Assembly (NCBI GenBank): GCA_022827905.1
Contig: JAJEIQ010000050.1
Location: forward strand, 1,385 to 65,384
Length of the DNA: 64,000 bases
Direction of reading: 5' to 3'
Origin: Pseudomonadales bacterium
GTDB taxonomy: Bacteria > Pseudomonadota > Gammaproteobacteria > Pseudomonadales > Azotimanducaceae
The notes under the pieces were generated by a model. It did no database searches, had not been told where the DNA came from, and was given only the letters and a program-made list of their open reading frames with translations. Below, in pieces: positions 33,052-60,456 of this stretch; the stretch's first letter is position 1; each line of letters begins with the position of its first letter. Both the position numbers and the translations under genes were made by a program.

Positions 33052-33342
33052 CTACCAAGGCTTGTTGAGGCCGGTTCGGAGACGACGTTCCCGCCACTGC
33101 CGGTCGGTTCTTCCCCCGCCATCGGCGCTCCGGCCAGGCGAGAACGGCAGGCGCAATAGAAAACCCCAAGCGGACCCGCTGAACAGGAGTCGCGCCAGAG
33201 TAGCCCGGGCATCGCGGGGGGAAACGACGATCCGGGCCGCCAAGGTGCTTTCCGGAGCGCTGTCGATGATCAGTTGCTCACCGTCGCGGCCGATGGCGCC
33301 CACCTGAAACTCAATGTCCGCAAGTTCACTGGTGACCTTCAT
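33052..33342 (-). CDS. hypothetical small protein (doubtful)
   Basis: The ATG overlaps the upstream stop (ATGA 33339-33342), which suggests coupling. The first ~55 aa look protein-like, but the C-terminal half is Arg/Gly-rich like non-coding GC-rich DNA. It ends 2 nt from the convergent ThDP gene. Confidence 0.3.
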   Translation of the reverse strand: MKVTSELADIEFQVGAIGRDGEQLIIDSAPESTLAARIVVSPRDARATLARLLFSGSAWGFLLRLPFSPGRSADGGGRTDRQWRERRLRTGLNKPW

Positions 33343-34505: not shown

Positions 34506-34524
34506 GGGTGAGTCCTTGCAGGGT

Positions 34525-38644: not shown

Positions 38645-38768
38645 GGTATCCCCCTTGAGTTCAATCCATTCGGAAGGCCGTATGTAAGCGCTTACACTAC
38701 TACTAGACTTTCTTCTCTTCAAGCGTTTGCGGGTCCAAATGAGCAATGCTGTCCAAGCTCGATACGCC

Positions 38769-38879
38769 GAGTGGGTGTGCGGTGCGGGCATGCGGCACGC
38801 CAGGCGGGGTTGCCCTCCCGGTCTGAAGGGCTTACGACGAGCCTTAACTGTGCCGCATGCCCGCACCGCACACCCACTC
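38769..38879. repeat. perfect 30-bp inverted repeat with 51-nt spacer in divergent intergenic region
   Basis: GAGTGGGTGTGCGGTGCGGGCATGCGGCAC (38769-38798) is the exact reverse complement of GTGCCGCATGCCCGCACCGCACACCCACTC (38850-38879). Confidence 0.9.
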
Positions 38880-38930
38880 TCATTCTTGATATCCGTGTTG
38901 ATGGGACGGTGCCGGAGTAAAATCAAAGCA

Positions 38931-40214
38931 ATGAACGCAATGCTCAAGACGCTGTTTTCCTGCCTCGCATTGGTGATGCTGGCCCGGGTGGCGATTGCCG
39001 AGCCACCCAACATCATACTGATCCTTGCCGATGACCTCGGTTATGGCGACATCGGCGCTTACGGCGCGGAACTGATCGAGACGCCCAGGCTTGACCGGCT
39101 GGCTCGGGAAGGCGTGCGGTTGACGGATTTCTATGCGAGCGGCAATGTCTGCACGCCTTCTCGCGCCGGGTTGCTGACCGGCCGTTATCCGATTCGCGAC
39201 GGTTTGGCGGCGGGCACCGTCACCGTGGACGACCAGCGCGGTTTACCTTCCGGCACGATGACCCTTGGCGAAGTGGCGCAACGCCAAGGGGTTCGGACCG
39301 CGTTGATCGGCAAGTGGCATCTGGGCCATCACCGGGAGGGACAGCGGCCCAATGCGAGGGGGTTCGATCTGTTCTATGGCCTGCTGCATCCAAACGATGT
39401 GGAGCAACCCGTCTATCGCAACGCGCAGGCACTGCCCGACCACTTTGAACAAGATGGGCTGACCCGCCGCTTCACCACCGAAGCGGTGCAATTCATCGAC
39501 CGCAACGCTGATCGGCCGTTTTTCCTGTACATGGCACATACCGCGCCGCACATTCCGCTGGCGGCGTCCGCCGAGTTCGCGGGTTCATCCCGGGCGGGCA
39601 CATACGGCGACGTGGTCCAGGAGCTCGACTGGAGCGTCGGGGAACTGCTCGACGCCGTCGCGCGCAACGGCATCGCGGAGAACACAGTCATCCTGTTCAC
39701 CAGCGACAACGGCCCGTTTCCGGAGGGCAGCAGCGGCGGATTGCGTGGCGGCAAGGCCACGGCCTGGGACGGCGGCTTCCGGGTTCCGTTCATCGCCCGT
39801 TGGCCAAGCCGAATGCCTGCGGGCCATGCGACAGGCGCCATGGCGATGAACATCGATCTGTTCCCGACCATTGCCGCCATCCTGGATATCCCGCCGATGG
39901 AGGCCCGGATGCTGGATGGGCGCAACATATTGCCCATTCTGACCGGCGCTTCGAACGATTCTCCCCACGAGGCGCTCTACTTCTTCAATCACGACCGCAT
40001 AGCGGGATTGCGAACCCAGGACTGGAAGATCGTTGTGCGGGCGGACTACCGCAACATCGAGCGCTGGCTGCCAGGCCGGGATATCCCACTGCTGTTCGAC
40101 ATGCGCGCGGATCCGATGGAACGATACAGCTTGGCTCGGCACCACCCCGCCAAGTGGCTGGAACTCGAAGCGCTGCTCAAGCGTGGTGAGCGGGAGTTCG
40201 CGACGGTCAATTAG
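38931..40214 (+). CDS. sulfatase (Cys-type, secreted)
   Basis: Signal peptide MNAMLKTLFSCLALVMLARVAIA. Motifs NIILILADDLGYGD and signature CTPSRAGLLTG. The ORF-track start 38727 is rejected. Confidence 0.9.
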   Translation: MNAMLKTLFSCLALVMLARVAIAEPPNIILILADDLGYGDIGAYGAELIETPRLDRLAREGVRLTDFYASGNVCTPSRAGLLTGRYPIRDGLAAGTVTVDDQRGLPSGTMTLGEVAQRQGVRTALIGKWHLGHHREGQRPNARGFDLFYGLLHPNDVEQPVYRNAQALPDHFEQDGLTRRFTTEAVQFIDRNADRPFFLYMAHTAPHIPLAASAEFAGSSRAGTYGDVVQELDWSVGELLDAVARNGIAENTVILFTSDNGPFPEGSSGGLRGGKATAWDGGFRVPFIARWPSRMPAGHATGAMAMNIDLFPTIAAILDIPPMEARMLDGRNILPILTGASNDSPHEALYFFNHDRIAGLRTQDWKIVVRADYRNIERWLPGRDIPLLFDMRADPMERYSLARHHPAKWLELEALLKRGEREFATVN

Positions 40215-41300: not shown

Positions 41301-42590
41301 TTATCTCATCAGCTCCGGCAATAGCAGCGCGATGCCCGGGAACAGAATGATAAGCGCCAAGCGCAGCAGGTCGGCAATGCCGAAGGGCAACAGTCCAGCA
41401 AAGATTCTGGCCAATGGGATGTCCGTCACCAGGGACTTCACCACAAAGACGTTCATGCCGATGGGCGGCGTGATCAGGCCGATCTCCGCGACGATGAGGA
41501 TGAATATGCCGAGCCACACCGGGTCGAATCCAAGGCCGGTCAGTGCCGGAAAAAAGATTGGCAGCGTGAGCAGCAGCAGGGAACTGCTTTCCAGGATGCA
41601 GCCGAGCGCGACGTAGATGAGTATGGCGGCGGCGAGGACGGTCATGGCGCCCAGATTCGATGCGACAATCCAGTCGTCGATGGCGCTGGGCAATCCGGCC
41701 ACGGTGACGAAGTTGGCGAACAGCAGCGCGCCGAAGAAGACCACGAAGAGGTTGGCTGTGGTTCCGATGGTCTGCGCCAGAATCTCCCGCAGCGCCGCCA
41801 AGTCCAGCGAGTGGCGGGCAACCGCGATGGCGATGGCGCCAAAGGCGCCCACCCCTGCTGCCTCCATGGCGGTGAATGCCCCCGCATAGATGCCGCCGAG
41901 AACCAGCACAAACAGAAAGGCCACGGGCCAGACCGGCAGCAACAACGGCAGCCGCTCGCGCCAGGGGATCCGGTCGCTTGGCGGGCCGTAGTTTGGTTTG
42001 ATCCGTGCGATCACGCGCACCGCCAGCAAGTAAAGGAGCACGCTGAGCAGGCCGGGCAACACCCCCGCAACCATAAGTTGGCTCAGCGACACGCCGGTGA
42101 TAAGCGAATAGAACACCATGCCGATGCTGGGCGGAATCAACACGCCAAGGGTGCCGCCGGCGGCCACCGAGGCGGCGGCGAATCCAGGGTCGTAGCGGCG
42201 CTCGCGCATGGCCGGCACCGAAATGCCGGTCATCGTGGCCGCGCAGGCGTAGCTGGATCCGGAAACGGCGGCAAAACCGCCGCTGGCGGCGATGGTGGCC
42301 ATGGCGAGACCGCCCGGCCGGTGGCCGAGGAAGGCGTGGGCCGCGTTGTAGAGATCCGCCGCCATGCGCGTTCGCCCAAGGACGTTGCCCATGAGCACGA
42401 ACAGCGGCAGCACCGAAAAGTTGTAATTCAACGCCGCATCGATGCCCACCTGTCCGATCATGATGACGGCGGGGTCCAGACCGCGCAGCGTGGCGACGCC
42501 GAGCACACCCACCAGCGCCATGCTGAAACCGATCGGCACACCTGCAACCAACAGCAGCAGCAACAGCGCGAGGCCGATGGCGAACAGCAT
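41301..42590 (-). CDS. dctM: TRAP transporter large permease
   Basis: The internal ATG at 42590 (MLFAIGLALLLLLLVAGVPIGF) overlaps the dctQ stop by 1 nt. Polytopic, 429 aa. The ORF-track start 43043 is rejected. Confidence 0.9.
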   Translation of the reverse strand: MLFAIGLALLLLLLVAGVPIGFSMALVGVLGVATLRGLDPAVIMIGQVGIDAALNYNFSVLPLFVLMGNVLGRTRMAADLYNAAHAFLGHRPGGLAMATIAASGGFAAVSGSSYACAATMTGISVPAMRERRYDPGFAAASVAAGGTLGVLIPPSIGMVFYSLITGVSLSQLMVAGVLPGLLSVLLYLLAVRVIARIKPNYGPPSDRIPWRERLPLLLPVWPVAFLFVLVLGGIYAGAFTAMEAAGVGAFGAIAIAVARHSLDLAALREILAQTIGTTANLFVVFFGALLFANFVTVAGLPSAIDDWIVASNLGAMTVLAAAILIYVALGCILESSSLLLLTLPIFFPALTGLGFDPVWLGIFILIVAEIGLITPPIGMNVFVVKSLVTDIPLARIFAGLLPFGIADLLRLALIILFPGIALLLPELMR

Positions 42591-43087
42591 CAGGGCTCGC
42601 CCTCCCCCGCGTCGCGCTCCCCCAAGCGGGGCAACAGCCGGGCCACGGTCAGTAGCGCCGCCAGAAGGCTCAGCACCCCGCCTAGGTAGGCGAACCAGGC
42701 GAGGGGCAGCGCCAGCATCTCGATGAGTTCGCCCCGGTCGGCGTAGTACCGCCCCTGCCACATAAACTGCAAGCCGAATGCCGTCAGGCACAGTGCCGCG
42801 GCGATCTCCACCAATCGCTCGCGAAATCTCGCCAGCGGCGGCGGTAGCGCCGTTTTCAGCAACTCGACCTGCATATAAGCCCGATTCGACGACAGCAGCG
42901 GCAAGCCGAGAAAGACGACAATGAGCACCAGCGCCTGCACCAGGGCGTGGCCGCTGGTGACGGGCATGCCGAGGGCGTAGCGGCCGATCACGTCGATCAC
43001 GGTCACCAGCACCATTGCCAGCAGGGCCGCTCCCGCAATCCACGCTAGGTACTTGGCAGCCTTATGGACTACGCGGTCCGCGCTCAT
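42590..43087 (-). CDS. dctQ: TRAP transporter small permease
   Basis: 165 aa, 4-TM profile. ATGA overlap with the dctP stop. Confidence 0.8.
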   Translation of the reverse strand: MSADRVVHKAAKYLAWIAGAALLAMVLVTVIDVIGRYALGMPVTSGHALVQALVLIVVFLGLPLLSSNRAYMQVELLKTALPPPLARFRERLVEIAAALCLTAFGLQFMWQGRYYADRGELIEMLALPLAWFAYLGGVLSLLAALLTVARLLPRLGERDAGEGEP

Positions 43088-44154
43088 GGCGAAGGCCCGG
43101 ACAATCTGCCGAGGCGAGTGGCTTCGCTGCGCACCGCGTCCCGGAACGATGCCAGCACCGCGGCCCCGTCGATGCCGTTGGCATTGGCGTGTTCGACCCA
43201 GGCCCGGTCGATGAACGAAGCCGCGGCGCGAAAGCGGCGCTCAAAGTCCTCGCTCGGCGTGATGCGAACGATACCCGCGGACCGCAGTTCCCGATCGGCT
43301 TCCTCGGTCCGCGCGATGAAGACTCGGGCCGCACGGCGCGCAAAGGCCTCCCCGGAAAGTTCCAGAATGCGGCGGCGGTCCCCTGCCCCGATTCGCCGCC
43401 AGCTCTCGTTGTTGGCAACCAGATAGAATCCGCCCCAACTAAGCCCTGCCCCCATGGCGACCGGCGTTTCGTATTTTAGAAAGGGATAGAGCTGCAGGCG
43501 CGACGTTCCGGTCGGCCCCATGCTGACGCCGTCGATGATGCCCCGGGAGAGGCCGTCGTGGATCTCGGGGGCGGTCAGCAGCACCGGGATGGCGCCGAGC
43601 CGCGCGATCAATTCGGCACCCAACTCGCTGGGGGCGGCGATTTTCAGGCCTGCCAGATCGGCCATCTCGCGCACCGGTTGATCGGTGGTGTAGAGCTGCT
43701 GCAGGCTGCTGACGTGCAGGGCCAGCACCTTGGTGCCGGCGAATTCCCCGGCTGGCGCCAAATGTTGCGCATAGGTGCGCCACAGGGCGACGGAAATCGA
43801 TTCCGGGTCGCTGGTTCCGAGATACGGCGACTCATTGATCATGGCAAGCCGAAAGCGACCGGGATTGGAACTCTGGTTGCCGCCGGCAAGGTCCACTAGG
43901 CCGGACCAAGCCATGTCGAAATTGCGCCGGTAACTGCCCAGCGGGGCAATGCTGAAGCGCACCCTAACCCTTCCTTCCGTAGCCCGGGCCACATCCCGTG
44001 CCCAGGGCACGAGGATGTCCGAATGATAGAAGTGGGTGCGGGGCGCGACTTGGTTGATCAGCAAGACATGTTCGGGCGGGGCCGTGTGGGCCACGGTTGC
44101 GGCGATCAGCAGTGACGCGGCCACCGCCGCGGCAATCCGAGGCAGGAGGCTCAC
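43084..44154 (-). CDS. dctP: TRAP transporter substrate-binding protein
   Basis: Signal peptide MSLLPRIAAAVAASLLIAATVAHT. 356 aa. GTGA overlap with the upstream ADH stop. Its position is 5' of dctQM. Confidence 0.8.
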   Translation of the reverse strand: MSLLPRIAAAVAASLLIAATVAHTAPPEHVLLINQVAPRTHFYHSDILVPWARDVARATEGRVRVRFSIAPLGSYRRNFDMAWSGLVDLAGGNQSSNPGRFRLAMINESPYLGTSDPESISVALWRTYAQHLAPAGEFAGTKVLALHVSSLQQLYTTDQPVREMADLAGLKIAAPSELGAELIARLGAIPVLLTAPEIHDGLSRGIIDGVSMGPTGTSRLQLYPFLKYETPVAMGAGLSWGGFYLVANNESWRRIGAGDRRRILELSGEAFARRAARVFIARTEEADRELRSAGIVRITPSEDFERRFRAAASFIDRAWVEHANANGIDGAAVLASFRDAVRSEATRLGRLSGPSP

Positions 44155-49167: not shown

Positions 49168-49554
49168 TCAGATGACGGCAGTCGCCTCAATTTCAATCTT
49201 GGCCTGACTCTCGACGAGCTGAACGACCTGGACCACGCTCATTGGCGGATAGTGCCGCCCGATTACATCGCGATAGGCTGCACCCATCTCCTTCTGTGAC
49301 CCCAAGTAGGCATCGCGGTCGGTGATGAACCATGTCAGGCGCACCAGATGCTCAGGGCCTGCACCGGCTTCCTTGAGCAGTGTCTTTATGTTCTCCAAGG
49401 TTTGACGAAACTGATCAATATACTCTTCGCTTTCAAATTCCTGCTGGGCGTTCCATCCGATCTGACCACCAAGAACAACCAGCTTGCCTTCGGCTACGAC
49501 GCCATTCGCATAGCCCTTTGCTGGTGCCCAATTGTCTGGCTGCAAAAATTCCAT
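49168..49554 (-). CDS. RidA/YjgF-family enamine-imine deaminase
   Basis: ATG 49554 follows AGGAAGAGG. 128 aa: PAKGYANGVV...LVRLTWFITD...IEIEATAV. Confidence 0.85.
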   Translation of the reverse strand: MEFLQPDNWAPAKGYANGVVAEGKLVVLGGQIGWNAQQEFESEEYIDQFRQTLENIKTLLKEAGAGPEHLVRLTWFITDRDAYLGSQKEMGAAYRDVIGRHYPPMSVVQVVQLVESQAKIEIEATAVI

Positions 49555-49567
49555 CCTGTGCCTCTTC

Positions 49568-51037
49568 CTATTTTTGTATGTGAATCGGTCGCCAGTCAGG
49601 CGCGACAAGGCGGCGTTTTCCGTCTGACGTTCGACTTGGATCGCCATCTGAAAAGTCACGATCCCACAACTGGCAGGTCACTTGTTTGTGCTTCTGATCC
49701 AATCCTTCACAGTAGTTGGTGTACTCGCAGAGGTTTACGGCATCACCCTGCCCGGTCCTGACTTTGATGAACCAATCAGGGTCAGCCAGCGCTTGACGCG
49801 CCAATGCAACGACGTCACCAACCTCTTCTGCCAAAACCCCTTTGGCTTGGTCAAAGTTGTGAATTCCGCCGGCAACGACGACGGGTGTGAGCAAGCTATC
49901 GTTCCGCAACGCCGAGCGTATGTGCTTGGCAAGCGGAACATTGCGACCGAACGGCCCTTGCTCATCAGAGATGTAGCCCGGCATGCATTCGTAGCCACTC
50001 ATGCCGGTGTACGGATACACCGCCTCGCCAACCTTGGGCTGCTTCGCGTCATCAAACTTGCCGCCCCGACTTAAGCTTAGGAAGTCGAGCCCCGCTCCAC
50101 ACAACGCAACGGCGTGCGCTGTGGCGTCTGAGAGATCAGAGCCGCCATCGATGCACTCATCGGCCAATATGCGCACGCCGACGACGAAATCCCGCCCAAC
50201 CGCGCTAAGCACTGCCTCCATGACCTCCAACGCCAGGCGCTGGCGACCCTTTAGAGCCCCGCCATATCCATCGTCACGGGTATTCGTTCGTGACAGGAAC
50301 GACGCCATGGTGTAGGCATGCGCGTAGTGCAGCTCCACGCCATCGAACCCCGCTTTCTTGGCTCGCACCGCCGCTGCTGCAAAGAGCTCGGGAAGCTGTT
50401 TCGGCAGATCGCGAATGTGTTCAAGCTCCATATCCGTAACGCGCTCGCGATAGCCATACCTCAGGGACTCCAACTCCCTGGTCGTCAGCACCTCCTCTAG
50501 CTCATCGCCACCAAGCAACATCAAGTGGGCGCGTACCTTGGCTTCATCGGCTGCCTCATCAAGCCCAACTGCTTGCGCATGCTCAGGGCGAACTTTCAAA
50601 AACCGTCCGAAATAGGCCTCAGCTGCTGGTCGACGCTTGATTGACAGGAAATCGATCAGTTGAATGAAAAGCTTGGAATAGCCCTTACTCTCCTCACGTA
50701 CCCGTTGTACGATTTGCTCCAAACCGGGAACGTAGCGATCATGGCCGATGCGCAGTAGCGGACCACTGGGTATGTCCCTAATGCCCGTAGCTTCCACGAC
50801 GATTGCCCCCGGTTGGCCACGCGCAAACCTTCCGTACCAATCGAGATTGTCGGCGGTTACAGCGCCGTCATCCTCCGCCCGCCAAGGCACCATGGCAGGC
50901 ACCCAAGTTCGCTCGTTGAGCCGCAAGGCTTGGAAGGAAAGCGGCTCGAATAGCTGGGCGGACGACGCCTCCTGTCGAGATGGCCAGCTGCCGCCTGGCG
51001 AGGCCTTGTACTTAACTCTCTGAGGAGGCTTCCACAT
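49568..51037 (-). CDS. NADH:flavin oxidoreductase (Old Yellow Enzyme family)
   Basis: OYE barrel motifs GFDGVELHYAHAYTMASFLSRTNTRDDGYGG. 489 aa with a roughly 80-aa insertion and a Cys-containing C-terminus. Confidence 0.85.
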   Translation of the reverse strand: MWKPPQRVKYKASPGGSWPSRQEASSAQLFEPLSFQALRLNERTWVPAMVPWRAEDDGAVTADNLDWYGRFARGQPGAIVVEATGIRDIPSGPLLRIGHDRYVPGLEQIVQRVREESKGYSKLFIQLIDFLSIKRRPAAEAYFGRFLKVRPEHAQAVGLDEAADEAKVRAHLMLLGGDELEEVLTTRELESLRYGYRERVTDMELEHIRDLPKQLPELFAAAAVRAKKAGFDGVELHYAHAYTMASFLSRTNTRDDGYGGALKGRQRLALEVMEAVLSAVGRDFVVGVRILADECIDGGSDLSDATAHAVALCGAGLDFLSLSRGGKFDDAKQPKVGEAVYPYTGMSGYECMPGYISDEQGPFGRNVPLAKHIRSALRNDSLLTPVVVAGGIHNFDQAKGVLAEEVGDVVALARQALADPDWFIKVRTGQGDAVNLCEYTNYCEGLDQKHKQVTCQLWDRDFSDGDPSRTSDGKRRLVAPDWRPIHIQK

Positions 51038-51039
51038 GC

Positions 51040-51852
51040 CTAGTTGCCCTCAAACACTGGCGATTGCTTGGCGACAAACGCTCGATAGGCGCGCTCAAAG
51101 TCAGAAGTTTGCATGCAAATCGCCTGCGCTTGTGCTTCAGACTCAATGGCTTGCTCGAGACTCATGCACCATTCCTGATTGAGCATCGTTTTGGTCATAC
51201 CATGCGCAAACGTGGGGCCGGCTATGAGCTGGCGCGCTTTCTCCCTCGCACATCCTGGCGCATCGTCAGAAAGCTCGTTAAAGAACCCCCAACGTTCGCC
51301 CTCCTCAGCCGTCATGACTCGACCACTGAACAAGAGTTCGCTCGCGCGACCTTGGCCAATCAATCTCGGCAATATCGCACAGGCTCCCATGTCACACCCG
51401 GCGAGCCCTACACGGGTGAACAGGAACGCAGTTTTGCTATTGCTGGCGCCATAGCGTAGGTCGCTGGCCATGGCGATGATCGCACCAGCGCCAGCGCAAA
51501 CACCCTCCACAGCGGCAATGACCACCTGCGGGCACGCTCGCATGGCCTTGACCAGATCACCGGTCATGCGGGTAAAGCGCATGAGTTCAACCATGTCCAT
51601 GGCAACCAGCGGTCCGATGATTTCATGCACGTCTCCGCCGGATGAGAAATTCCCGCCGCTCCCCTCGATTACAACCGCATGCACGTCATCCGCATAACAC
51701 AGTTCCCGAAACAGATCCCTAAGCTCCGCATAGGAGTCAAAGGTGAGTGGGTTTTTTCGTTCCGGACGATTCAAAGTCACCGTCGCGACCCCGTCTTCCA
51801 AGGACCAAAGAAAGTGAGACGGCTGATAGTCGGCCATGGATTTGGTTTGCAT
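51040..51852 (-). CDS. enoyl-CoA hydratase/isomerase (crotonase)
   Basis: [16 protein letters not shown] and [22 protein letters not shown]. Confidence 0.9.
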
Positions 51853-51861
51853 CGCTATCCC

Positions 51862-52599
51862 CTACGTTGTTTCACCGCCAGAGATGGAGATGGCTTGGCC
51901 GGTCACAGATCCGGCGAGTTCGCTCACCAACCACACAGCCGTTGCGCCAATTTCCTCTGGCTCGATTAATCTCTGTTGCGGGTTGTTGGAGTACAGCGCC
52001 TTTCGCGCGTCGTTCTCCGATCGACCGGTTTTTTCCATGATGTTCTTCACGGAGATCTCCAACATCTCCGTGTTCGCAAAGCCCGGACAGACTGCGTTAA
52101 ACGTGACGGGGGATCGCGCAAATTCCGCTGCCAACGCACGCGTAAGCCCGAGCAGTGCATGCTTGGACGCACAGTAGGAGGCGACGTACCCGTAGCCTTT
52201 CTGCGCCGCAGTGCTGGCGATATTGATGACCCGTCCAAACTCGCGTTCCAACATGCCAGGCAGCACGGCCTGCGTGCAATGGAAGGCCCCGTCGACATTC
52301 ACCGCAAACGTATCCCGCCAAGTCACGCTATCCAGCTTCGCAAAGGGCATACTCGGTGCGATGCCTGCATTGTTCACAAGAACGTCCACGGCATCAAATT
52401 CCCGAAAAGCGCCAACCACCGCGCTGTTGTCGGTTATGTCCAAGACTTGACAGTCAGCATTCGACAGCGATTCGCAAACTTTCTCCAAAGCACTCTGCGT
52501 TCGACCAACGAGGGTCGTCCGAATGCCGTCCGCATCGAATGCCCGGGCAATCCCTGCCCCAATGCCAGTGCCTCCACCAGTTATGACGGCATGTTTCAA
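51862..52599 (-). CDS. SDR-family dehydrogenase
   Basis: TTG 52599 overlaps the upstream TGA (TTGA). Cofactor motif [11 protein letters not shown] and catalytic motif [10 protein letters not shown]. The longer track ORF from 52677 would overlap the upstream gene by 80 nt. Confidence 0.8.
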
Positions 52600-54905
52600 G
52601 CACTTGCTCCCATGGCGCGCGCTCGCTCCGCGTTGCGCATCAATTGCTCCTTCCCAGGCAGGTACTGCACTGGCCACGCTTGCTCGACACCCGCTTCAGC
52701 CGCAGCCCTGAGCGTCCAAAATGGATCCGTAAGGTGGGGTCGCCCGAGGCAGCACAGGTCCGCACGACCTGACACAAGAATCGAATTCACGTGATCCGTC
52801 TCATAAATGTTGCCAACCGCCATCGTCGGAATGCCCGCGCTGTTGCGAATGAGGTCCGCAAACGGCGTCTGGAACATTCGACCATAGACGGGTTCCGCAT
52901 CAGGTGATGTTTGCCCGGCTGAGACGTCTATGATGTCTGCACCGGCGTCATGGAACGCCCGGGCGATCTCGACGGATTCTTGGCCATCCACGCCTTGAGG
53001 ATGCCAATCCGTCGAAGAGATTCGAACACTCATCGGCTTTTCCCCAGGCCAAACTCGCCGTACCGCACGGAAGACTTCCAATGGGAAGCGAAGCCTGTTC
53101 GCCAGCGAGCCGCCATATTCATCGGTTCTATGGTTGAGCAGTGGGGTAATGAACGCGGACAACAGGTAGCCGTGCGCGCAGTGCAGTTCGAGCCAATCGA
53201 AACCGGCTTCATGGGCCCTCCTCGCCGCCCGCACGAACTGCACCCTCACTGCATTCATGTCAACTCGCGTCATCGCTTTCGGCACCTGGTTTTCTGGCCC
53301 GTACGGCACATCCGACGCGCTCATGATCGGCCAATTTCCTTCATCGAGTGGTGCGTCGCTTCCTTCCCAGCCCACCTTAGTGGAACCTTTGGGCCCGGAA
53401 TGGCCCAATTGCATCGCAAATTTGCACGGCGTTTGACGATGCACAAAATCGACGATTCGTTTCCATGCCGCCTGCTGCCGGCCGTTCCATAGGCCAGCAC
53501 ACCCAAGTGAGATGCGTCCCTCACGTGAGACGTCCGTCATCTCAGTGAACAGCAAACCAGCCCCGCCCTTCGCCAACGCGCCGTAGTGCACCAAATGAAA
53601 ATCCTCTGGAATTCCCTCTTCAGCGCTGTACATGGACATCGGCGAGACAACGATTCGATTGCGCAAAACAAGGTCACGAACACGAAAAGGCACAAACATC
53701 GGTCGCGTCGGCCTTGGTGGGGGCGCGTTCGAGGTTGATGCAAACCATGACTCCATCTCACCCAGCCATTCACCATCCCGCAGCCTGAGGTTTTCGTGGC
53801 TGACACGCTGCGATCGTGTCAACAGGCTATAGGTGAACTGCCTCGGAGCCAGATGCATGTAGTGTTCTACATTTTCAAACCATTCCGTGCTGTTTCGAGC
53901 CGCATTCGTGATCTTGATCACTTCCAGCGCCCGCTCCTCCTGATAGGAAGCCAGCGCATCTTCAAGCGATGCGGCATCACTATGGATGTGATCAGCGAGG
54001 CAGGTGGCATCTTCCAACGCCAGTTTGGTGCCAGAGCCAATGGAAAAGTGTGCCGTGTGGGCTGCATCGCCCAACAACACAACGTTCTCGTTGTACCACC
54101 GTTCACAGGTCACTCGCGGGAAGTTGATCCATATCGCCGAGCCGCGAAGATGAGCCGCATTGTCCATCAGGGGCGCGCCGTCCAGATGCTCCTTGAAAAT
54201 CTCCTCGCAGAGCCTTACGCCCTTCTCCTTCCCCATGCGCTCAAACCCGGCTCGAGCCCAGGTTTCAGGGCCGCACTCAACGATGAACGTTGAGGTGTCT
54301 TCATTGAATTGGTAAGCATGGGCCCAAAACCAACCCCATTCCGTTTTTTCGAAGATGAAGTTGAAGGCATCAAAGCGCTTCTTAACCCCCAGCCAAACAA
54401 ATCGGTTCTTTCGCGCATCCACATTTGGCCTAAACACATCCTTGTACAGCGATCTAACACGGCTGTTTAGTCCATCGCAGGCAACGACTAAATCGTACTC
54501 TGCGCGATAGGCTTCCATATGTTGGATTTCAGTCTCCGTCTCGTACTCGATCTCAACTCCGAGTTCCACACAACGTGCTGACAAAATCTCCAACAGTCGC
54601 AGCCGACCAATACCGCAAAACCCGTGGCCGCCCGACCGATGCGTTTCTCCGCCAAAGTGGACTTCCACATCATCCCAGTGCGCAAAGCTGCTCGCGACAA
54701 GCGCGGCTGTCTGAGGATCATTGCTTCTCATGTGTTCCATCGTTTCATCTGATAGAACCACACCCCAGCCAAAAGTGGAGTCCGCCCGATTTCGTTCCAA
54801 TACCCGCACTTGATGGTTTGGATTCCTCAGTTTCATGGAAAGCGCAAAGTAAAGACCCGCAGGGCCTCCGCCTAAGCAAATGACATTCATCGATTGACCA
54901 TTCAT
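52596..54905 (-). CDS. bifunctional FAD monooxygenase / OYE reductase (2-aminobenzoyl-CoA monooxygenase-reductase, salicylyl-CoA 5-hydroxylase type)
   Basis: N-terminal half: [14 protein letters not shown] and [25 protein letters not shown]-terminal half: [36 protein letters not shown] 54905 overlaps the upstream stop (ATGA). 769 aa. Confidence 0.85.
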
Positions 54906-55690
54906 TGCCGAACCCCGGGAATGAGCGCAAGAACCCGCAATGGACTGCCGGATCCGTTCTGAATCTTCAAGGGAGCGCAAAACAACAGGCTCCCCGTGGG
55001 TGGCAGGTGTTCAAGGTTCGCCAAGCACTGCAATCCATATTTGCCAGAACCGTGCATGAAGTAGTGGCAAGGGTACGGAGGGTTTAGATGCTGGGCTTGG
55101 CCTGCATCCGTACCGATCGACTCAGTCCCAAATCCGAGAACATTGCGTTCCACCAGATACTGCACTGCCCCGGCATCCGGCCCTGGCGTGTGCTGCCCCT
55201 CTTCGTCGTAGTTTTGATACTCAATCGGATCTGTTCGTTTTGACCAATCGGTGCGCATGATCACCCATGCCCCTTCTGGAATCTCACCGTGTTCCTGTTC
55301 CCACTGAACAATATGGTCTTTAGTCAAGAGGAAGTCGGCGTTCTGCCCTGAGTGCTTGCTGTAATCGAGCACAACCGCCGGGGCAATCATATGCTCGGGC
55401 GGAATGGTATCCACTGTGTTGTTCGGCAAGTTGCGGCCGGACACCCAGTGAATGGGTGCATCAAAGTGGGTGCCGGTGTGTTCGCCACATGAGAAGTTGT
55501 TCCAATACCAACTGGGACCTCGATCGTCGTACTTGGAAACCTCCTCAATCCGAAACGGCTGAACTTGACCAAACTCCGGCGGGAGGGTCAGTTGGGGAAA
55601 ATCGGGTGAGAGCGTCTGCGTTAGATCAACAACGCGAACCCCGCCGCTGGTGATGGCCCGGCTCAATCCAGTGAGCAATTCAGCACCCAT
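54902..55690 (-). CDS. cyclase-family metal hydrolase (kynurenine formamidase / isatin hydrolase family)
   Basis: Motif [13 protein letters not shown] (HxGTHxDxPxH). GGAG lies 6 nt upstream of the ATG. Confidence 0.85.
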
Positions 55691-55700
55691 GTTCAGCTCC

Positions 55701-56432
55701 TTAGGTAAAGCTCATGTTGCCCACGGAACTGCCGCCACAGACAAAGAGCGTTTGGCCGGTCACAAACCCGGCGTCATCGGAAAGAAAGAAATCCACTGCC
55801 CGCGCAACATCGCTTGGCCGCCCAATCCGACCCACCGGAATTCGCTCTGCCACACGCGCTTCCAACTCGCTGCCCTTTTCGACGACGTCGTGAAACATTT
55901 CCGTGTCCTCAATCGCGCCTGGCGCCACAACATTCACCGTCACGCCATGCTCGGCGAGTTCAAGCGCCCAGGTACGCGCCATGCCGATCATGCCCGCTTT
56001 GGTCGCCGAGTAAACGGTTCGTTTCTCGAGCCCCACAACCGCACGAGTGCTCATAAGAACAACCCGCCCATGACGTTCGCAACGCATCCTCGGCAAAGCC
56101 GCTTGCAGCATCGATATGGCGCAGCCCAAGTGCAGCTGACTGAGGGCGGTCAGATCTTCGTTCACAACCTCTTCGACTGGTTTTTCGATTATGGCCCCAG
56201 CGTTGTGAATAATGCGCGAACTCGGCCACTGCTCGGCCGCTTGCTGAAAGGCGCTTCGCGTAGCCACCGGATCAGACAGATCCGCCTTGATCGATACCAA
56301 CGAGTCATGACTTCCGGCGACACTTCGGCGGGCAATGCTAACGACCTGATAGCCTTGCCGCACGAGATGGTCCGCAAGGTGGGCTCCAATGCCAGAGCTC
56401 CCACCGGTCACCCAAACGTTGGGTTTACTCAC
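55701..56432 (-). CDS. SDR-family dehydrogenase
   Basis: The GTG start overlaps the upstream gene by 8 nt. Cofactor motif VWVTGGSSGIG and catalytic motif YSATKAGMIG. Confidence 0.9.
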   Translation of the reverse strand: MSKPNVWVTGGSSGIGAHLADHLVRQGYQVVSIARRSVAGSHDSLVSIKADLSDPVATRSAFQQAAEQWPSSRIIHNAGAIIEKPVEEVVNEDLTALSQLHLGCAISMLQAALPRMRCERHGRVVLMSTRAVVGLEKRTVYSATKAGMIGMARTWALELAEHGVTVNVVAPGAIEDTEMFHDVVEKGSELEARVAERIPVGRIGRPSDVARAVDFFLSDDAGFVTGQTLFVCGGSSVGNMSFT

Positions 56433-57672
56433 TGATCAGCTCCTTCTCCAAGACCTTTGGCTCCTCTCGAAATCGACTATAGAACTCCTTCGCAACATCT
56501 CCCACGTAGATGTCTTCAACGCCGCTCCTCAGCCCCTCGACGACATCGCGCGCTAGGCGCTCCGGTGCGACCTTAGGTGGCGGCACCATCTGGCTCCAAG
56601 GCTCATCAATGGGGCCGGAAAACGCATTCAGCACCCGAATGGCCGCGGGGTGAAACTCCGCTCGTTGACACTGGCTCAGGCTCAAGGCCGCAGCCTGGGA
56701 TGCCGAGTAGGTCCCTTCGGGTGGATAGTTGCTCAAGGCAAAGACGGACAGGAGATTCACCCAAGCCACCGCACTGTTTTGGCCATCCGCGCCACGTGAC
56801 TTCATCGCGGGACCAAACTCCTGAATGAGCCGGAGCAAGCCAAAGTAGTTAACTTCCATCTCAAGCTTGGCAACATCTGTCCCATAACGAGACGCAATAC
56901 CCTGGGTGCGATGCACGGTGGCGGTGTTAATCAAGATATCCACACGACCGCCTAACGCACTGCCTTGTTCCTGTACGCTTCGCGAATCAGTCAGATCAAG
57001 AGGCACGAATTCAACTTCCCGAATCTCCCCCAAATCGGCAAACCCATCCGGTCGTTTCCAAGGTTCGGTTTCCCCCACCCAGATGAGACTCGCGCCCGCA
57101 TCCGCGATAGCCCGCACCATGGCTTGACCTACCTCGCTCTTGCCATCGGTGACCAGCACCTTTCTGAATTTCGGGTCGCAAGTCATCTCGCGAAGCTGTT
57201 GGTCATCAGCCATATTGGGCACCTCATCAATTGGGGTAGCGATGAGTACGCCGCGCCCCGCTCTATCTAGCCGTGCACTTACCGACACCTGCTCCGATGG
57301 AGAGCCGATGTCGCCATGCAGGTGTGCGACCACCGATGGGCCGCAGTCGAGACGAATCAGGCCCAATCGCCATGGCATCCGCTCCCGGAAATACAGATCA
57401 TGGCTGTGGTGCAGGTTGGTTTCGGCCAACAATTGACCGCCCCCATCAAGCTCCACCCACTCAAGATCTTGTGATACGCAGGCGCCGCACATTTCTCGCG
57501 GCGGGTACTGCACCATTTGGCACTCGCTGCATTGTTGCAGTTCCAGCACCCCCCGGGCCGCCGCTGCGGTCAGCCTCAGGCCAATCCGGCTGCGCGCCCA
57601 TGGCGGCAGGATTGGCGCTCGCGTGCGCAGTATTGGGTTTTTGCGCTTCGGACGCTGCAGCGGTTCCGTCAC
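56425..57672 (-). CDS. DUF35 (Zn-ribbon + OB fold) fused to a degenerate SDR-like domain
   Basis: GTG 57672 overlaps the thiolase stop (GTGA). Zn ribbon: CSECQMVQYPPREMCGAC. The OB region follows, then an SDR-like domain with TDGKSEVG in place of TGxxxGxG and YSASQ in place of YxxxK. Confidence 0.8.
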   Translation of the reverse strand: MTEPLQRPKRKNPILRTRAPILPPWARSRIGLRLTAAAARGVLELQQCSECQMVQYPPREMCGACVSQDLEWVELDGGGQLLAETNLHHSHDLYFRERMPWRLGLIRLDCGPSVVAHLHGDIGSPSEQVSVSARLDRAGRGVLIATPIDEVPNMADDQQLREMTCDPKFRKVLVTDGKSEVGQAMVRAIADAGASLIWVGETEPWKRPDGFADLGEIREVEFVPLDLTDSRSVQEQGSALGGRVDILINTATVHRTQGIASRYGTDVAKLEMEVNYFGLLRLIQEFGPAMKSRGADGQNSAVAWVNLLSVFALSNYPPEGTYSASQAAALSLSQCQRAEFHPAAIRVLNAFSGPIDEPWSQMVPPPKVAPERLARDVVEGLRSGVEDIYVGDVAKEFYSRFREEPKVLEKELISE

Positions 57673-58850
57673 GCCACTGCCCCAATGCCTAGAAGAGCCG
57701 CGGCCGTACACACCCCGCGATCGTAGTTAATCATGCCAAACCCGCTCACCAACCCGATCTTGGCATCGGGCACTTGATGACCCGCTGGCTGGCCCGTCAA
57801 TTGCCTGACCGCTTCGACCATGCCAAGGTAACCACCAGCGGCGCCGGCCTGACCAACGGACAACTGGCCGCCCGATGGGTTGATCGGAAAGGTTCCATCC
57901 CAGGCAAACTCATTGGCTTGAATGAATGCGGGCGCCTCGCCCTTCTCACAGAACCCAAGATCTTCAAATTGAAGCGCATTGATAATGGGATAGTCGTCGT
58001 ACGTACACATGAAGTCGACGTCATTGGGCGAGCAGTCCGCACGTTCGTACAGCGCATCCTTGTCCATGGCCCAGCCGCCGCGCATTTGAATCGGATCTTC
58101 AGAAAACGCATTGTGACGCTCGATCGTGGAGAGGATTCGAGCGTGGGGCAGGCCCAACTGCGATGCACTCTCTCGCGACATGACCAAGAACCCTTCCGCG
58201 CCTGCGCAGGGCATCACGCAATCGAACAAATGCAACGGCTCGGCGATGACGCGAGCCGACATGTATTCCTCCAAGGTGAGCGGCCTTTTGAACAGCGCAT
58301 TCGGATTGGCCAAGGCATTGGTTCGTTGCGCTACGCAAAGCTTGCCGAACTGCTCACGGGTCGCGCCGTATTCCCGCATGTAGTAATCCGTTAGGAACGC
58401 AAAACTCGCGTTGGGTCCGCCGGAACCGTAGGGATAGACCGCATCCTGCGCGTATTGGCTGAAACTGCCCAGGAGATTGCGGAAGGTATCCACATGATTG
58501 GTGTCCGCACCAATGCAAGCAACGATGGAAGCATCCCCACACTGCACCGCCCGAGCCGCGCGACGCAAGCCAACCACCCCACAGGCGCCACCCATCGGGA
58601 TGTGATCGAGCCATCTGGGCGACATGCCGAGGTGCTGGGTCAGCCCCACTGCGGTATCGGGAACCAACTGGAAGCTCGATATGCAGAGCCCATCGATGTC
58701 GTGCTTTTCCAATCCCGAGTCGTCGATCAACGTTCTGAGAGCCTTCGCCGCAAACCAATGCGTGCTGCGATTGGTGTACCGGACATAGTCAACCGTCACC
58801 GGCGCAACGACGGCAATCTCCTCATAGGGCAACTGAAGACGGCTAGCCAC
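57669..58850 (-). CDS. thiolase-like protein (SCP-x / DUF35-partner type)
   Basis: The GTG at 58850 overlaps the ligase 3' end by 8 nt. Thiolase-like sequence with CISSF, CAGAEG and a GG-rich C-terminus. 393 aa. Confidence 0.85.
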   Translation of the reverse strand: MASRLQLPYEEIAVVAPVTVDYVRYTNRSTHWFAAKALRTLIDDSGLEKHDIDGLCISSFQLVPDTAVGLTQHLGMSPRWLDHIPMGGACGVVGLRRAARAVQCGDASIVACIGADTNHVDTFRNLLGSFSQYAQDAVYPYGSGGPNASFAFLTDYYMREYGATREQFGKLCVAQRTNALANPNALFKRPLTLEEYMSARVIAEPLHLFDCVMPCAGAEGFLVMSRESASQLGLPHARILSTIERHNAFSEDPIQMRGGWAMDKDALYERADCSPNDVDFMCTYDDYPIINALQFEDLGFCEKGEAPAFIQANEFAWDGTFPINPSGGQLSVGQAGAAGGYLGMVEAVRQLTGQPAGHQVPDAKIGLVSGFGMINYDRGVCTAAALLGIGAVA

Positions 58851-60456
58851 GGCGTTTCTTCTTCCCGCGCAGGTCCACGCATTGCCGCCCCCCCACAAGC
58901 TCGCAGGCCAAGGTCTTCAGCTCACTGCGTTGAACCTTTTCCGTTGCCGTAAGCGGTAGTTTGCCCACAAACGCGATGTACCCTGGGGCCTTGTAATATG
59001 CGAGCCGACCAAGACAGTGATCGGTGATGGCTTGGGCAAAGGCATCGCTCGCATCAGTTGCCACAATGCAAGCAAACACCTCCTCGCCCCGAATTTCGTC
59101 AGCAATGGATGTGATCCCCACAGCCTGGACGCCGCCGACCTCCATGATGACTTCCTCGACTTCCACGGCCGAGATGTTCTCCCCGCTTCGGCGAATCACG
59201 TTTTTTTTGCGATCCACGAAGTGCATGAGCCCATCATCGTCAACATAAACGAGATCGCCCGTGTGGAAGTAACCGCCCTCCCACGCCGCTTGAGTCGCCT
59301 GTTCGTCTTTCAGGTATCCAGAAAAAAAACCGTATCGAGGCGAAGGCGAGGCGCGCCGCACGAGTAACTCACCCGGACATCCTTGCGCCACGTCTCGGCC
59401 AGCATCATCAACCAAGCGAAAGTCCAGGTGATCGGGCGGGCGGCCAAAACAGGCCGTGCCCACCTTGCGAGGCTCCTCACTGGCGATGATCGCCACCGTG
59501 CATCCCGTCTCGGTCATCGCCCAGGCCTCGATTAAGCGCACGTTGAACCTGGACTCAAAAGCGGTGTGGAGCTCGCCCGACAGACCAGCGCCAAAGCCAA
59601 ATCGCAGGTTGTGCCGTTGATCTCTCGGGCTTTTGTCGAGACTCATCAGCATGGCGGGCATGACCCCTAGGTAGTGCATGATCGTCGCGTCGCACTCGGC
59701 AACCGAATCCCACCAGCTGGCCGGGTGAAACCGATCAATTGGCACAATGCAGCTCCCCGTTAGAATCATCGCCATCGTTGAGGCCGCCATTGCATTCATG
59801 TGGTACATCGGCAGCGGCGAAATCAACCGGTCCTCCCCAGGCTGCAACTGGCAATATCCGCCAACGTTTTGGTACCACTCGCCCGTTGCGAGGAAGTACT
59901 CGTTGGACAGCATGCACCCCTTGGGTTTTCCGGTGGTGCCCGAGGTGTAAAGGAGCGCGCACTCAGTCTCCATTCTGCCGACGGAATTAAGCGCCACCCG
60001 ATTGTCGGTTTTGCCTTTGTCCCCGTTGGTGTCGAAATCCGTCACGGACACCACAGGACAGGTCGCAATGCTCGCCAAAGCTGCTTGCGCCGTTGAATCT
60101 AAAACAACCACCAACGACGCTTCACTATGGCTTAGCACGTACTCCAGCTCGGCGGATTGCCATTGCGGGTTGAGCGGAACCACGCTCACGCCAAGCGCAT
60201 TCAATGCCAGCCAGTGGTAGAAAAACTCAGGCCTGTTGTCGAGGCCCACCGCAACGCGCGTGACGACTCCGGGCTTGAGCTCCAACCGTTCTTCATAGTG
60301 CTGAACTGCCCTCGAGATCGTCGAAAGCGCGTCCGCATAACTCACTGTGGACGCCGCAACGCCATACCGACTTGCGGTGTCGCTAACCATCTGCATAAAC
60401 GGCCGAGACCCGTACTTTTCCGATGTATTAACAAAGGCTTGCGCGACACTACTCAT
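58843..60456 (-). CDS. AMP-dependent acyl/aryl-CoA ligase
   Basis: AMP-binding motif LLYTSGTTGKPKG. Later motifs YFHTGDLVYVDDDG and RRSGENI. Confidence 0.9.
   Translation of the reverse strand: MSSVAQAFVNTSEKYGSRPFMQMVSDTASRYGVAASTVSYADALSTISRAVQHYEERLELKPGVVTRVAVGLDNRPEFFYHWLALNALGVSVVPLNPQWQSAELEYVLSHSEASLVVVLDSTAQAALASIATCPVVSVTDFDTNGDKGKTDNRVALNSVGRMETECALLYTSGTTGKPKGCMLSNEYFLATGEWYQNVGGYCQLQPGEDRLISPLPMYHMNAMAASTMAMILTGSCIVPIDRFHPASWWDSVAECDATIMHYLGVMPAMLMSLDKSPRDQRHNLRFGFGAGLSGELHTAFESRFNVRLIEAWAMTETGCTVAIIASEEPRKVGTACFGRPPDHLDFRLVDDAGRDVAQGCPGELLVRRASPSPRYGFFSGYLKDEQATQAAWEGGYFHTGDLVYVDDDGLMHFVDRKKNVIRRSGENISAVEVEEVIMEVGGVQAVGITSIADEIRGEEVFACIVATDASDAFAQAITDHCLGRLAYYKAPGYIAFVGKLPLTATEKVQRSELKTLACELVGGRQCVDLRGKKKRRG

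Follow-up and report, generated by a model that had tools for sequence, protein, structure and literature searches.

Probable role of the DUF35::SDR-like fusion protein IadH as a non-dehydrogenase partner of a thiolase-fold aldolase in auxin degradation

Background

How does a protein that is annotated as a dehydrogenase serve its pathway when the cofactor and catalytic motifs of its dehydrogenase domain are degenerate? This question is raised by a gene in a 64,000-nucleotide stretch of DNA from a Pseudomonadales bacterium (Azotimanducaceae; assembly GCA_022827905.1, contig JAJEIQ010000050.1, positions 1,385 to 65,384 of the forward strand), which is called the window here and to which coordinates refer. 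The gene encodes a DUF35 module fused to a domain that resembles the short-chain dehydrogenases/reductases (SDRs). It is the iadH orthologue of an iad (indole-3-acetic acid degradation) locus.

Root bacteria such as Variovorax use the iad pathway to remove auxin and protect root growth, and the pathway is already being engineered into commensals. The Variovorax iad locus was reportedly studied by Conway in 2022 and by Ma in 2023, and later in a preprint by Jiang et al. (2025/2026). The conversion of dioxindole-3-acetic acid to C8 ring products is the least understood step; it is drawn from annotation as the work of a coenzyme A (CoA) ligase, a ketothiolase and an alcohol dehydrogenase. The published gene order is iadA/B (iorA/B), iadC, iadD/E (Rieske), iadF (AMP ligase), iadG (thiolase), iadH (SDR), iadI (cyclase), and iadJ (SDR) (PMC12852158). 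In V. paradoxus CL014, deletion of iadF, iadG, iadH, or iadI lowers anthranilate, and C10H9NO4 (dioxindole-3-acetic acid) accumulates (PMC12633357). By annotation IadF is an acyl-CoA synthetase, IadG a ketothiolase, and IadH an alcohol dehydrogenase (PMC12633357).

Results and Discussion

Domain architecture of the fusion protein

The product of the fusion gene has 415 amino acids, and its stop codon lies at 56427-56425. Its GTG start (57672-57670) and the TGA stop (57671-57669) of the thiolase-like gene lying upstream share nucleotides in the sequence GTGA; the coordinates of the open reading frames (ORFs) agree with the initial annotation on this point. Since the N-termini of orthologues share MTxPLxRPKRKNP with the protein, 57672 is the real start rather than that of a longer ORF reaching 57711. 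The 3' end of the gene shares 8 nucleotides with the GTG start of the next SDR gene (GTGAGTAA).

Pfam finds zf-ChsH2 (PF12172) at residues 36-71 (E 5e-8, 33.1 bits against a cut-off of 23.2), OB_ChsH2_C (PF01796) at residues 72-121 (E 2e-9, 37.7 bits against a cut-off of 27.1), and adh_short at residues 171-357 (E 6e-19, 68.8 bits), the last together with adh_short_C2 covering residues 171-364. While the protein scores 68.8 bits with adh_short, the three neighbouring SDRs score 122-180 bits. The best NCBIfam model for the SDR part is PRK08264.1-4, at 163 bits and under the cut-off of 279. An AlphaFold2 model made from 60 sequences (mean predicted local distance difference test, pLDDT, 80.6; predicted template modelling score, pTM, 0.77) has a beta-rich N-terminal module and a C-terminal domain of alternating beta and alpha elements. 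With this model the top hits of Foldseek are all SDRs, the best being 5u4s with a template modelling (TM) score of 0.89 normalised to the target; the heterotetrameric SDR 4cql ranks third. The SDR-like character that had been assigned to the C-terminal part by eye is thus borne out by structure prediction and by Pfam.

The N-terminal part likewise contains the zinc ribbon and OB region that were read from it initially, as is seen from Pfam, from matches to solved structures, and from the predicted strands. The ribbon ligands are C48-x2-C51-x10-C62-x2-C65. All four are invariant in orthologues except for two N-terminally truncated sequences and one C51W, and OB strands are predicted at residues 70-147 with pLDDT of about 85-92. 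In sequence the module matches 6ok1_B (the DUF35 domain of ChsH2), 6esq_E, and 9skh_E (PhlB). DUF35 chains of this type have been solved in complex with thiolase-fold proteins (PMC12329534). A thiolase-like gene lies directly upstream of the fusion gene in 76 of 82 loci, and in a few of the others the thiolase gene is cut by the contig end. The natural reading is that the DUF35 module pairs with the adjacent thiolase-like protein. The module is preceded by a basic, Pro-rich arm in which R10, K11, N12, P13, P23, P24, R27, S28, and R29 are invariant among the 60 sequences. Modelled alone the arm is disordered (pLDDT below 50 at residues 1-26), as would be expected of an interface peptide for the partner enzyme, which it may be.

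Orthologues and distribution

Is the fusion real? A search of 5.8 billion proteins, from sources that include isolates and metagenomes, brought up no fewer than 120 fusion proteins of full length, with 413-416 amino acids and 63-99% identity, each having all four Pfam domains. In the databases they are named 'SDR family NAD(P)-dependent oxidoreductase' or 'NAD(P)-dependent dehydrogenase/uncharacterized OB-fold protein'. Full-length relatives extend to about 34% identity in a search of 1.84 billion cluster representatives. In a scan of one genome per species, 471 stretches were confirmed. Among the best 80 of the 471 are stretches from genomes, complete or of isolates, that belong to Variovorax, Xenophilus, Pseudacidovorax, Ramlibacter, and Rhodoferax, as well as from many metagenome-assembled genomes of Burkholderiales, Xanthobacteraceae, Steroidobacteraceae, and Pseudomonadales.

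In principle two genes could have been joined by a frameshift or by an error of assembly, and an invariant Met154 preceded by a Shine-Dalgarno-like motif does resemble a former gene start. The chance of such an artefact is practically nil, however, with at least 120 intact fusions known, some of them on complete Variovorax chromosomes, and with the linker in continuous frame in all of them. The suspicion that a sequencing error had created the fusion is thereby removed.

Met154 lies in the interdomain linker. It is invariant in 60 orthologues, with a GTG codon in two loci, and a Shine-Dalgarno-like motif stands before it in 91% of orthologues as compared with 21% at control in-frame positions, the orthologues in this count not being independent of each other. 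Resampling of synonymous codons indicates that the amino-acid composition alone predicts 74%; most of the enrichment therefore results from a linker rich in Glu, Lys, and Asp. As a weak lead, Met154 might be an internal start that yields a free SDR-like protein of 262 amino acids, or a relic of the gene fusion.

The iad locus

The gene order around the fusion gene is that of the iad locus. The window operon, on the minus strand, begins with an IorB-like subunit, Rieske alpha, Rieske beta, CoA ligase, the thiolase-fold protein, and the fusion. It continues with a canonical SDR, a 'cyclase' of family PF04199, a fusion of a flavin adenine dinucleotide (FAD)-dependent monooxygenase with an old yellow enzyme (OYE), an SDR, an enoyl-CoA hydratase, an OYE, and a RidA-like protein. 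The Variovorax loci run from IorB through Rieske alpha, Rieske beta, ligase, thiolase, fusion, and cyclase to SDR; the homologue of the fusion protein is 61% identical over residues 1-414 and is encoded between the thiolase and cyclase genes. When the window proteins were compared by tblastn with 82 fetched loci, the core was alike almost everywhere. Even P0122 and P0129, which share 43-55% identity with the fusion protein, are still encoded in clusters of ligase, thiolase, fusion, and cyclase together with Rieske and IorAB genes.

The PF04199 'cyclase', IadI, is an isatin hydrolase by its matches. It aligns over the full length with crystallised isatin hydrolases, namely with 5nna, 5nnb, and 5nmp at E of about 1e-108 and with 4j0n at E 3e-82. 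In most loci, those at 43-55% identity among them, its gene comes immediately after the fusion gene.

Motifs of the SDR-like domain

The initial annotation had read the Gly-rich motif of the SDR-like domain as TDGKSEVG and the catalytic motif as YSASQ, and had taken both as degenerate. Three independent HMMER alignments, to the solved SDRs 5u4s, 5t2u, and 3awd, place TDGKSEVG, NTAT, and YSASQ in register with TGxxxGxG, NNAG, and YxxxK. The first Gly is replaced by Asp, the second by Glu, and the Lys by Gln, while the third Gly is kept; no substitute Lys lies near the catalytic position in these alignments. Of the catalytic tetrad Asn275, Ser309, and Tyr322 are present, and Gln stands at position 326. 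The possibility that the motifs are merely out of register is rejected, as the three alignments and the family alignment agree. The neighbouring SDRs are canonical as described, with GGSSGIG/YSATK, GGGTGIG/YCASK, and GCSSGFG/YTASK read in the window.

The family tells more than the single sequence. Among 118-121 orthologues of more than 62% identity, position 176, the first Gly of TGxxxGxG, is Asp in 118 of 118. The second Gly is Ala, Glu, Pro, or Arg, and the third (position 182), which packs the helix, is invariantly Gly. The Gly of NNAG has become Glu, Gln, Asp, or Thr, giving N[TN]A[EQTD], and the Thr of PGxxxT has become Asp or Glu (PGPIDDE in the family). Asn275 and Ser309 do not vary. 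At position 322, that of the catalytic Tyr, 65 sequences have Phe and 53 have Tyr; a neighbour-joining tree shows at least 17 switches between the two, and the flanking positions 321 and 323-325 are unchanged. At position 326 the catalytic Lys is kept in 101 sequences, and 17 have Gln. All four combinations of Tyr or Phe with Lys or Gln are seen among orthologues. IadH of Variovorax, which is the genetically required one, reads VTDGKTEVGQ / NNAEVHRT / HGTFSASK. In more distant homologues from iad-like contexts the Lys is replaced by Glu or Gln. P0124, another distant homologue, carries His in place of the Lys and Ala in place of the Tyr.

Changes from Tyr to Phe are known to disable SDRs. Since close orthologues from one and the same conserved operon differ in whether they have the Tyr322 hydroxyl, it cannot be the catalytic acid/base of a function that they share. 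The domain very probably cannot perform SDR chemistry, and it would not bind nicotinamide adenine dinucleotide (phosphate), NAD(P), to judge from its motifs. Loss of SDR chemistry, first suspected from one protein, now has the firmer footing of a family comparison, with an invariant Asp176, toggling between Tyr and Phe, and repeated loss of Lys.

Note that 5u4s was crystallised with nicotinamide adenine dinucleotide phosphate (NADP) despite Leu at the catalytic Tyr position (LSASK). Absence of the Tyr by itself is hence no sign, in this SDR clade, that the cofactor is no longer bound.

The stand-alone relative P0253 and two rare fusions outside iad loci, P0153 and P0157, keep TGAxGGxG, NNAG, YCASK, and PGAxDT, and a PPPK family signature is common to all three. 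PGxxDT stands at the PGxxxT region in 5u4s, P0253, and P0153. Because P0253, P0153, and P0157 keep canonical motifs, the changes in the iad lineage are derived.

The putative partner protein IadG

The start of IadG is uncertain, and the longest ORF opens at a TTG at 58898. Its best match among solved structures is 9myr_A (CtSal, E 4e-46), followed by 4u4e and 6ok1_A (Ltp2, E 5e-42), and 7pxp_C (BbsB) is more distant. 9MYR is the Comamonas bile-acid aldolase CtSal with the DUF35 domain of Shy (PMC12329534). Ltp2 uses Tyr294 of YDHF as catalytic base and Tyr344 as acid, while Sal uses Tyr302 and Cys304, both of YDCY, and has Gln352 in place of Tyr344 (PMC12329534).

IadG has YDDY aligned with Y294DHF of Ltp2 and Y302DCY of Sal, where the true thiolases 7yvy and BbsB have HDAF. 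At the thiolase xxCASG motif it has GGACG, with Gly at the position of the nucleophilic Cys. At the thiolase GHP motif it has GGQLSVGQAG, with Gln in place of His, matching GGQLSFGQSG of Sal. In 76 IadG orthologues YDDYP and GGQLSxGQAG are invariant, while the Cys of GGACG, adjoining the canonical nucleophile position, is Ser in 65 and Cys in 11. IadG thus lacks the machinery of thiolases; with the aldolase base kept, it looks like a retro-aldolase of the Ltp2/Sal type. Invariant Asp286 (counted from the GTG at 58850), the third residue of YDDY, is possibly the general acid. YDDY would be a third active-site variant of thiolase-fold retro-aldolases. The partner had initially been called a thiolase. 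The thiolase fold next to the fusion gene holds, but the chemistry is probably that of an aldolase, with no nucleophilic Cys and with YDDY and GQAG.

Could IadG and IadH instead form an ordinary module of the beta-oxidation type, in which DUF35 tethers a 3-hydroxyacyl-CoA dehydrogenase to a true thiolase? The domain content (thiolase fold, DUF35, and SDR) is what one would expect of it, as are database names such as 'acetyl-CoA acetyltransferase' and 'SDR family oxidoreductase' and the labels ketothiolase and alcohol dehydrogenase used in the literature (PMC12633357). This is very improbable given an IadG without the nucleophilic Cys and the thiolase His residues, with YDDY and GQAG instead, and an IadH with degenerate SDR motifs. 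It also conflicts with the proposed substrate, whose tertiary beta-hydroxyl cannot be dehydrogenated.

Proposed reaction

The reading we prefer, at a probability of roughly 0.7, is that IadG and IadH form a complex that would split dioxindole-3-acetyl-CoA without any redox step, and that the SDR-like domain is conserved as a non-dehydrogenase. IadF would make dioxindole-3-acetyl-CoA. The DUF35 module of IadH would bind IadG and complete its substrate cleft, by analogy with the DUF35 domain of ChsH2 on Ltp2 and that of Shy on Sal. The IadG/IadH complex would then catalyze retro-aldol cleavage of dioxindole-3-acetyl-CoA to isatin and acetyl-CoA, and IadI would open the isatin.

The beta-hydroxyl of dioxindole-3-acetyl-CoA is tertiary and cannot be oxidised to a ketone. 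Cleavage would proceed without a redox step for this reason. Removal of the product would pull the aldol equilibrium forward, which would explain why loss of IadI backs up dioxindole-3-acetate. As a ligase, an aldolase with DUF35, and an isatin hydrolase need no dehydrogenase between them, the ancestral SDR domain would have lost its chemistry. It probably descends from a canonical SDR of the PRK08264 type, with the cofactor contacts and the need for Tyr and Lys lost.

Several points weigh against this proposal. Purifying selection on the SDR-like domain is strong, the mean column identity over the whole protein being about 75%. Many invariant charged and aromatic residues surround the site where the cofactor once bound: D176, K178, Q183, W198, E203-P-W-K206 (with W205 and K206), H254, and R255. 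Such conservation of the SDR-like domain, including Ser309, Asn275, and the charged pocket residues, clearly points to a specific task, and the domain may bind a ligand or be catalytic in a non-canonical way. Nucleotides can be bound in spite of a degenerate Gly motif, as in SDRs of the FabI type. On the side of IadG, Asp stands at the position of the essential Cys304 of Sal (His in Ltp2) and Gly at that of Tyr344 of Ltp2, so that the general acid would differ from those of both known aldolases. Finally, Jiang et al. report that C8H7NO2 (dioxindole, or reduced isatin) accumulates with IadFGH in the absence of IadI, and they speak of 'reductive removal' of the side chain (PMC12633357).

The last point would fit, and is the main opening left for, an alternative in which the SDR-like domain is a non-canonical reductase dependent on NAD(P)H, which turns isatin from IadG into dioxindole, or acts on another carbonyl. 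The accumulation of C8H7NO2 was seen in strains with IadCDEFGHJ and without IadI (PMC12633357), and a reductase would account for it directly, as it would for the invariance of Ser309 and Asn275 and the strong conservation of the domain. NADP binding by 5u4s, the closest solved relative, with Leu at the Tyr position fits as well. In addition, distant fusions beside the same YDDY-type partner have their SDR motifs intact, and in the ancestral module aldol cleavage was therefore probably linked with a redox step. We nevertheless consider a reductase unlikely. The Tyr hydroxyl is gone in more than half of the orthologues, including that of Variovorax, and has toggled at least 17 times, and the Lys has become Gln, Glu, or His in several lineages. 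An invariant Asp stands at the Gly that contacts the pyrophosphate, and acidic residues stand at the Gly of NNAG and the Thr of PGxxxT. Reduction of isatin would also be a detour, because the next enzyme is isatin hydrolase. The dioxindole in strains without IadI is most simply explained as isatin reduced by unspecific reductases of the cell.

Role of the SDR-like domain

If the redox-neutral cleavage proposed above is right, what is the SDR-like domain kept for? [quoted passage not shown]

According to the initial annotation the domain might recruit a real dehydrogenase or bind the substrate. A particular form of such recruitment is suggested by the overlap of 8 nucleotides, by which the fusion gene is translationally coupled to the gene of the IadJ-like SDR in the window. 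The inert domain would hold the real SDR IadJ in a mixed oligomer and so tie the dehydrogenase that makes dioxindole-3-acetate to the ligase and the aldolase. Helices alpha-E (264-296) and alpha-F (324-343), which form the oligomer interface of SDRs, are among the best conserved parts, the heterotetrameric 4cql is high in the fold search, and channelling among IadFGHI has been inferred in the literature (PMC12633357). The conservation of the two helices is ambiguous, however, because both are also active-site helices. While the order in the window is H-J-I, that in Variovorax is H-I-J, and there and in most loci the isatin hydrolase gene separates iadH from iadJ. In several loci an IadJ-like gene is missing within 10 kb, and the CoA ligase step intervenes between the reactions of IadJ and IadG. 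Docking of IadJ is therefore quite unlikely.

More tentatively, and with some doubt, IadG-IadH can be pictured as a third class of thiolase-fold retro-aldolase complex, characterised by YDDY and converting dioxindole-3-acetyl-CoA to isatin and acetyl-CoA. In it the nucleotide pocket of the SDR might have been rebuilt as a non-redox site (D176, K178, W205, K206, H254, and R255) for the CoA nucleotide, for the oxindole, or for docking of the ligase or the isatin hydrolase, maybe with a free copy of the domain made from Met154.

The canonical fusions give a hint of how the module originated. The genes of P0157 and P0153 directly follow a thiolase-fold gene of the YDDY/GQxG type, with start and stop overlapping. 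Their clusters contain a family III CoA-transferase with the TctABC transporter, or another AMP ligase, and no cyclase; the substrate is probably a carboxylic acid. The combination of a YDDY aldolase with a DUF35::SDR fusion is thus an older two-gene module, whose SDR presumably worked on the carbonyl product or else on a precursor. In the iad lineage the fusion would have persisted, but not the redox function. The same YDDY-type partner gene is observed in loci of fusions with canonical motifs, namely L083 (2949-6557), L084 (1279-4938), and L002.

Neighbouring genes and other features

Features of the window are listed in Table 1.

Table 1. Features of the iadH orthologue and its surroundings in the window
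Feature	Residues	Position	Strand	Basis or remark
DUF35::SDR-like fusion, iadH orthologue		56425..57672	minus	ORF, Pfam, orthologues, gene order
N-terminal arm, basic and Pro-rich (RPKRKNP...PPWxRSR)	1-35	57568..57672	minus	conservation, pLDDT
DUF35 module, 4-Cys zinc ribbon and OB fold	36-147	57232..57567	minus	Pfam, PDB matches
Met154 ATG in interdomain linker, GAGGTG upstream at 57225-57220	154	57211..57213	minus	possible internal start or gene-fusion relic
SDR-fold domain, non-canonical cofactor and catalytic motifs	170-415	56428..57165	minus	Pfam, alignments, Foldseek
TDGKSEVG	175-182	57150-57127	minus	
NTAT	249-252		minus	
YSASQ	322-326	56709-56695	minus	
GPIDEP			minus	PGxxxT region of SDR-like domain
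IadG orthologue, SCP-x/thiolase-fold, motifs GGACG, YDDY, GGQLSVGQAG		57669..58850	minus	Pfam Thiolase_C_1
IadF orthologue, AMP-forming acyl-CoA ligase		58843..60456	minus	Pfam AMP-binding, conserved order
IadJ orthologue, canonical SDR (GGSSGIG, YSATK)		55701..56432	minus	52-58% identity to Variovorax post-cyclase SDR
IadI orthologue, isatin hydrolase (cyclase family PF04199)		54902..55690	minus	5nna_A 'isatin hydrolase A', E 2e-108
Upstream genes: copper amine oxidase, carbon-nitrogen hydrolase, FAD amine-oxidase-like, TonB-dependent receptor, TRAP transporter		28293-30209 (+), 33339-34559 (-), 34525-36102 (-), 36125-39016 (-), 41301-44154 (-)		Pfam names

The locus in the window differs from that of Variovorax in gene content. 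While Variovorax has iadC between IorB and the Rieske gene, the window has no iadC-type ferredoxin/reductase gene at the junction of the IorB-like and Rieske alpha genes (62257; also at 5444 in locus L001). The electron donor of the oxygenase would then be encoded elsewhere, the rest of the window not having been searched for it. Loci L015-L041 (Variovorax and relatives) have a second Rieske alpha/beta pair after iadH-I-J, about 50% identical to the first, which is absent from the window.

The window locus, unlike the Variovorax iad locus, continues into genes for aryl-CoA hydroxylation and reduction. At 49168-54980 on the minus strand, and at 12768-18521 in L001, the iad genes run into a fusion of FAD-monooxygenase with OYE (771-794 amino acids), after which come an SDR, an enoyl-CoA hydratase, another OYE, and a RidA-like protein. 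The FAD-monooxygenase::OYE fusion scores higher than the cut-off set by NCBIfam for 'bifunctional salicylyl-CoA 5-hydroxylase/oxidoreductase'. To judge from these genes, the IorAB-like enzyme may turn isatinate, a 2-oxoacid, into 2-aminobenzoyl-CoA, which would then be dearomatised, while Variovorax stops at anthranilate. The amine oxidase, hydrolase, receptor, and transporter genes upstream of the locus might, speculatively, feed tryptamine, indole-acetamide, or nitrile-type precursors into indole-3-acetic acid.

Novelty and significance

The initial annotation had suggested a new scaffold architecture. The fusion itself is real; it is not, however, an unknown architecture in an unknown setting, being an iadH orthologue in a published locus and widespread. 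No mention of the DUF35 domain, of the degenerate SDR motifs, or of an aldolase mechanism of IadG/IadH was found in the searchable literature, including the iad papers. A description of a DUF35::SDR fusion was likewise not found there, which does not prove its absence elsewhere. Apparently the DUF35 architecture, the loss of motifs, and the aldolase reading of IadG/IadH are new, while the gene family is already known and widespread.

If the preferred reading is true, removal of the side chain in the iad pathway would be a redox-neutral retro-aldol reaction leading to isatin, and the IadH 'dehydrogenase' would be a DUF35 partner subunit and no dehydrogenase. IadG would need co-expression with IadH, and it would be defined which cofactors are not needed and which product is to be expected. 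Aldolases composed of DUF35 and a thiolase fold would extend beyond steroid catabolism, with an added active-site variant. IadH would also be a clean natural example of how an enzyme domain persists, conserved as a pseudoenzyme, once pathway chemistry has made its own reaction impossible.

Comparison with known systems

The nearest described counterpart is IadH of Variovorax. Both proteins carry TDGK and NxA[E/T] motifs and occupy the same position in the locus. While the Tyr and Lys positions of YxxxK are Tyr and Gln in the window protein, they are Phe and Lys in that of Variovorax.

In organisation IadG/IadH resembles ChsH2(DUF35)-Ltp2 (6OK1) and Shy(DUF35)-Sal (9MYR), aldolase complexes for steroid side chains. 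In them a DUF35 protein with a second domain is the partner of a thiolase-fold retro-aldolase that acts on a beta-hydroxyacyl-CoA. As in Sal and Ltp2, the catalytic-base Tyr of a YDxF/Y motif is present in IadG, and the Gln pair of Sal is kept. The motif is YDDY in IadG, while it is YDHF in Ltp2 and YDCY in Sal. The zinc site of IadH has four Cys as in ChsH2, while Shy has Cys3His. The fused domain is SDR-like and apparently inert in IadH, while it is a MaoC hydratase in the steroid aldolase systems. The proposed substrate is an oxindole acetyl-CoA, in contrast to the steroid of Ltp2 and Sal.

A DUF35 gene adjoins a gene for a thiolase-fold protein of the SCP-x type also in BbsA/BbsB, IpfE/IpfD, PhlB/PhlC, and the archaeal thiolase/HMG-CoA synthase complex (7PXP, 5M3K, and 6ESQ). 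These stand-alone DUF35 partners have about 130-145 amino acids and no extra domain, unlike IadH. BbsB keeps the nucleophilic Cys (SACSAG) and HDAF, unlike IadG. The layout of the window (Rieske alpha/beta, CoA ligase, thiolase, and DUF35) presumably resembles that of ipfABDEF.

For the SDR part the solved structure to compare is 5U4S from Burkholderia cenocepacia, an NADP complex of the PRK08264 type with 30% identity and the TM score given above. It shares MEVNYFG, SASxAAAL, and VPPPK with the fusion protein. TGxxxGxG, NNAG, and the Lys are kept in 5U4S and P0253 but not in the protein studied here.

Another association of DUF35 with an SDR is found in Sulfolobus acidocaldarius. According to a preprint, a DUF35 protein there holds a ketothiolase, an SDR ketoacyl-CoA reductase, and a dehydratase together (bioRxiv 10.1101/2024.07.05.601840). 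The proteins there associate non-covalently, and their SDR works as an NADPH-dependent reductase, while in IadH the SDR fold is covalently fused and degenerate.

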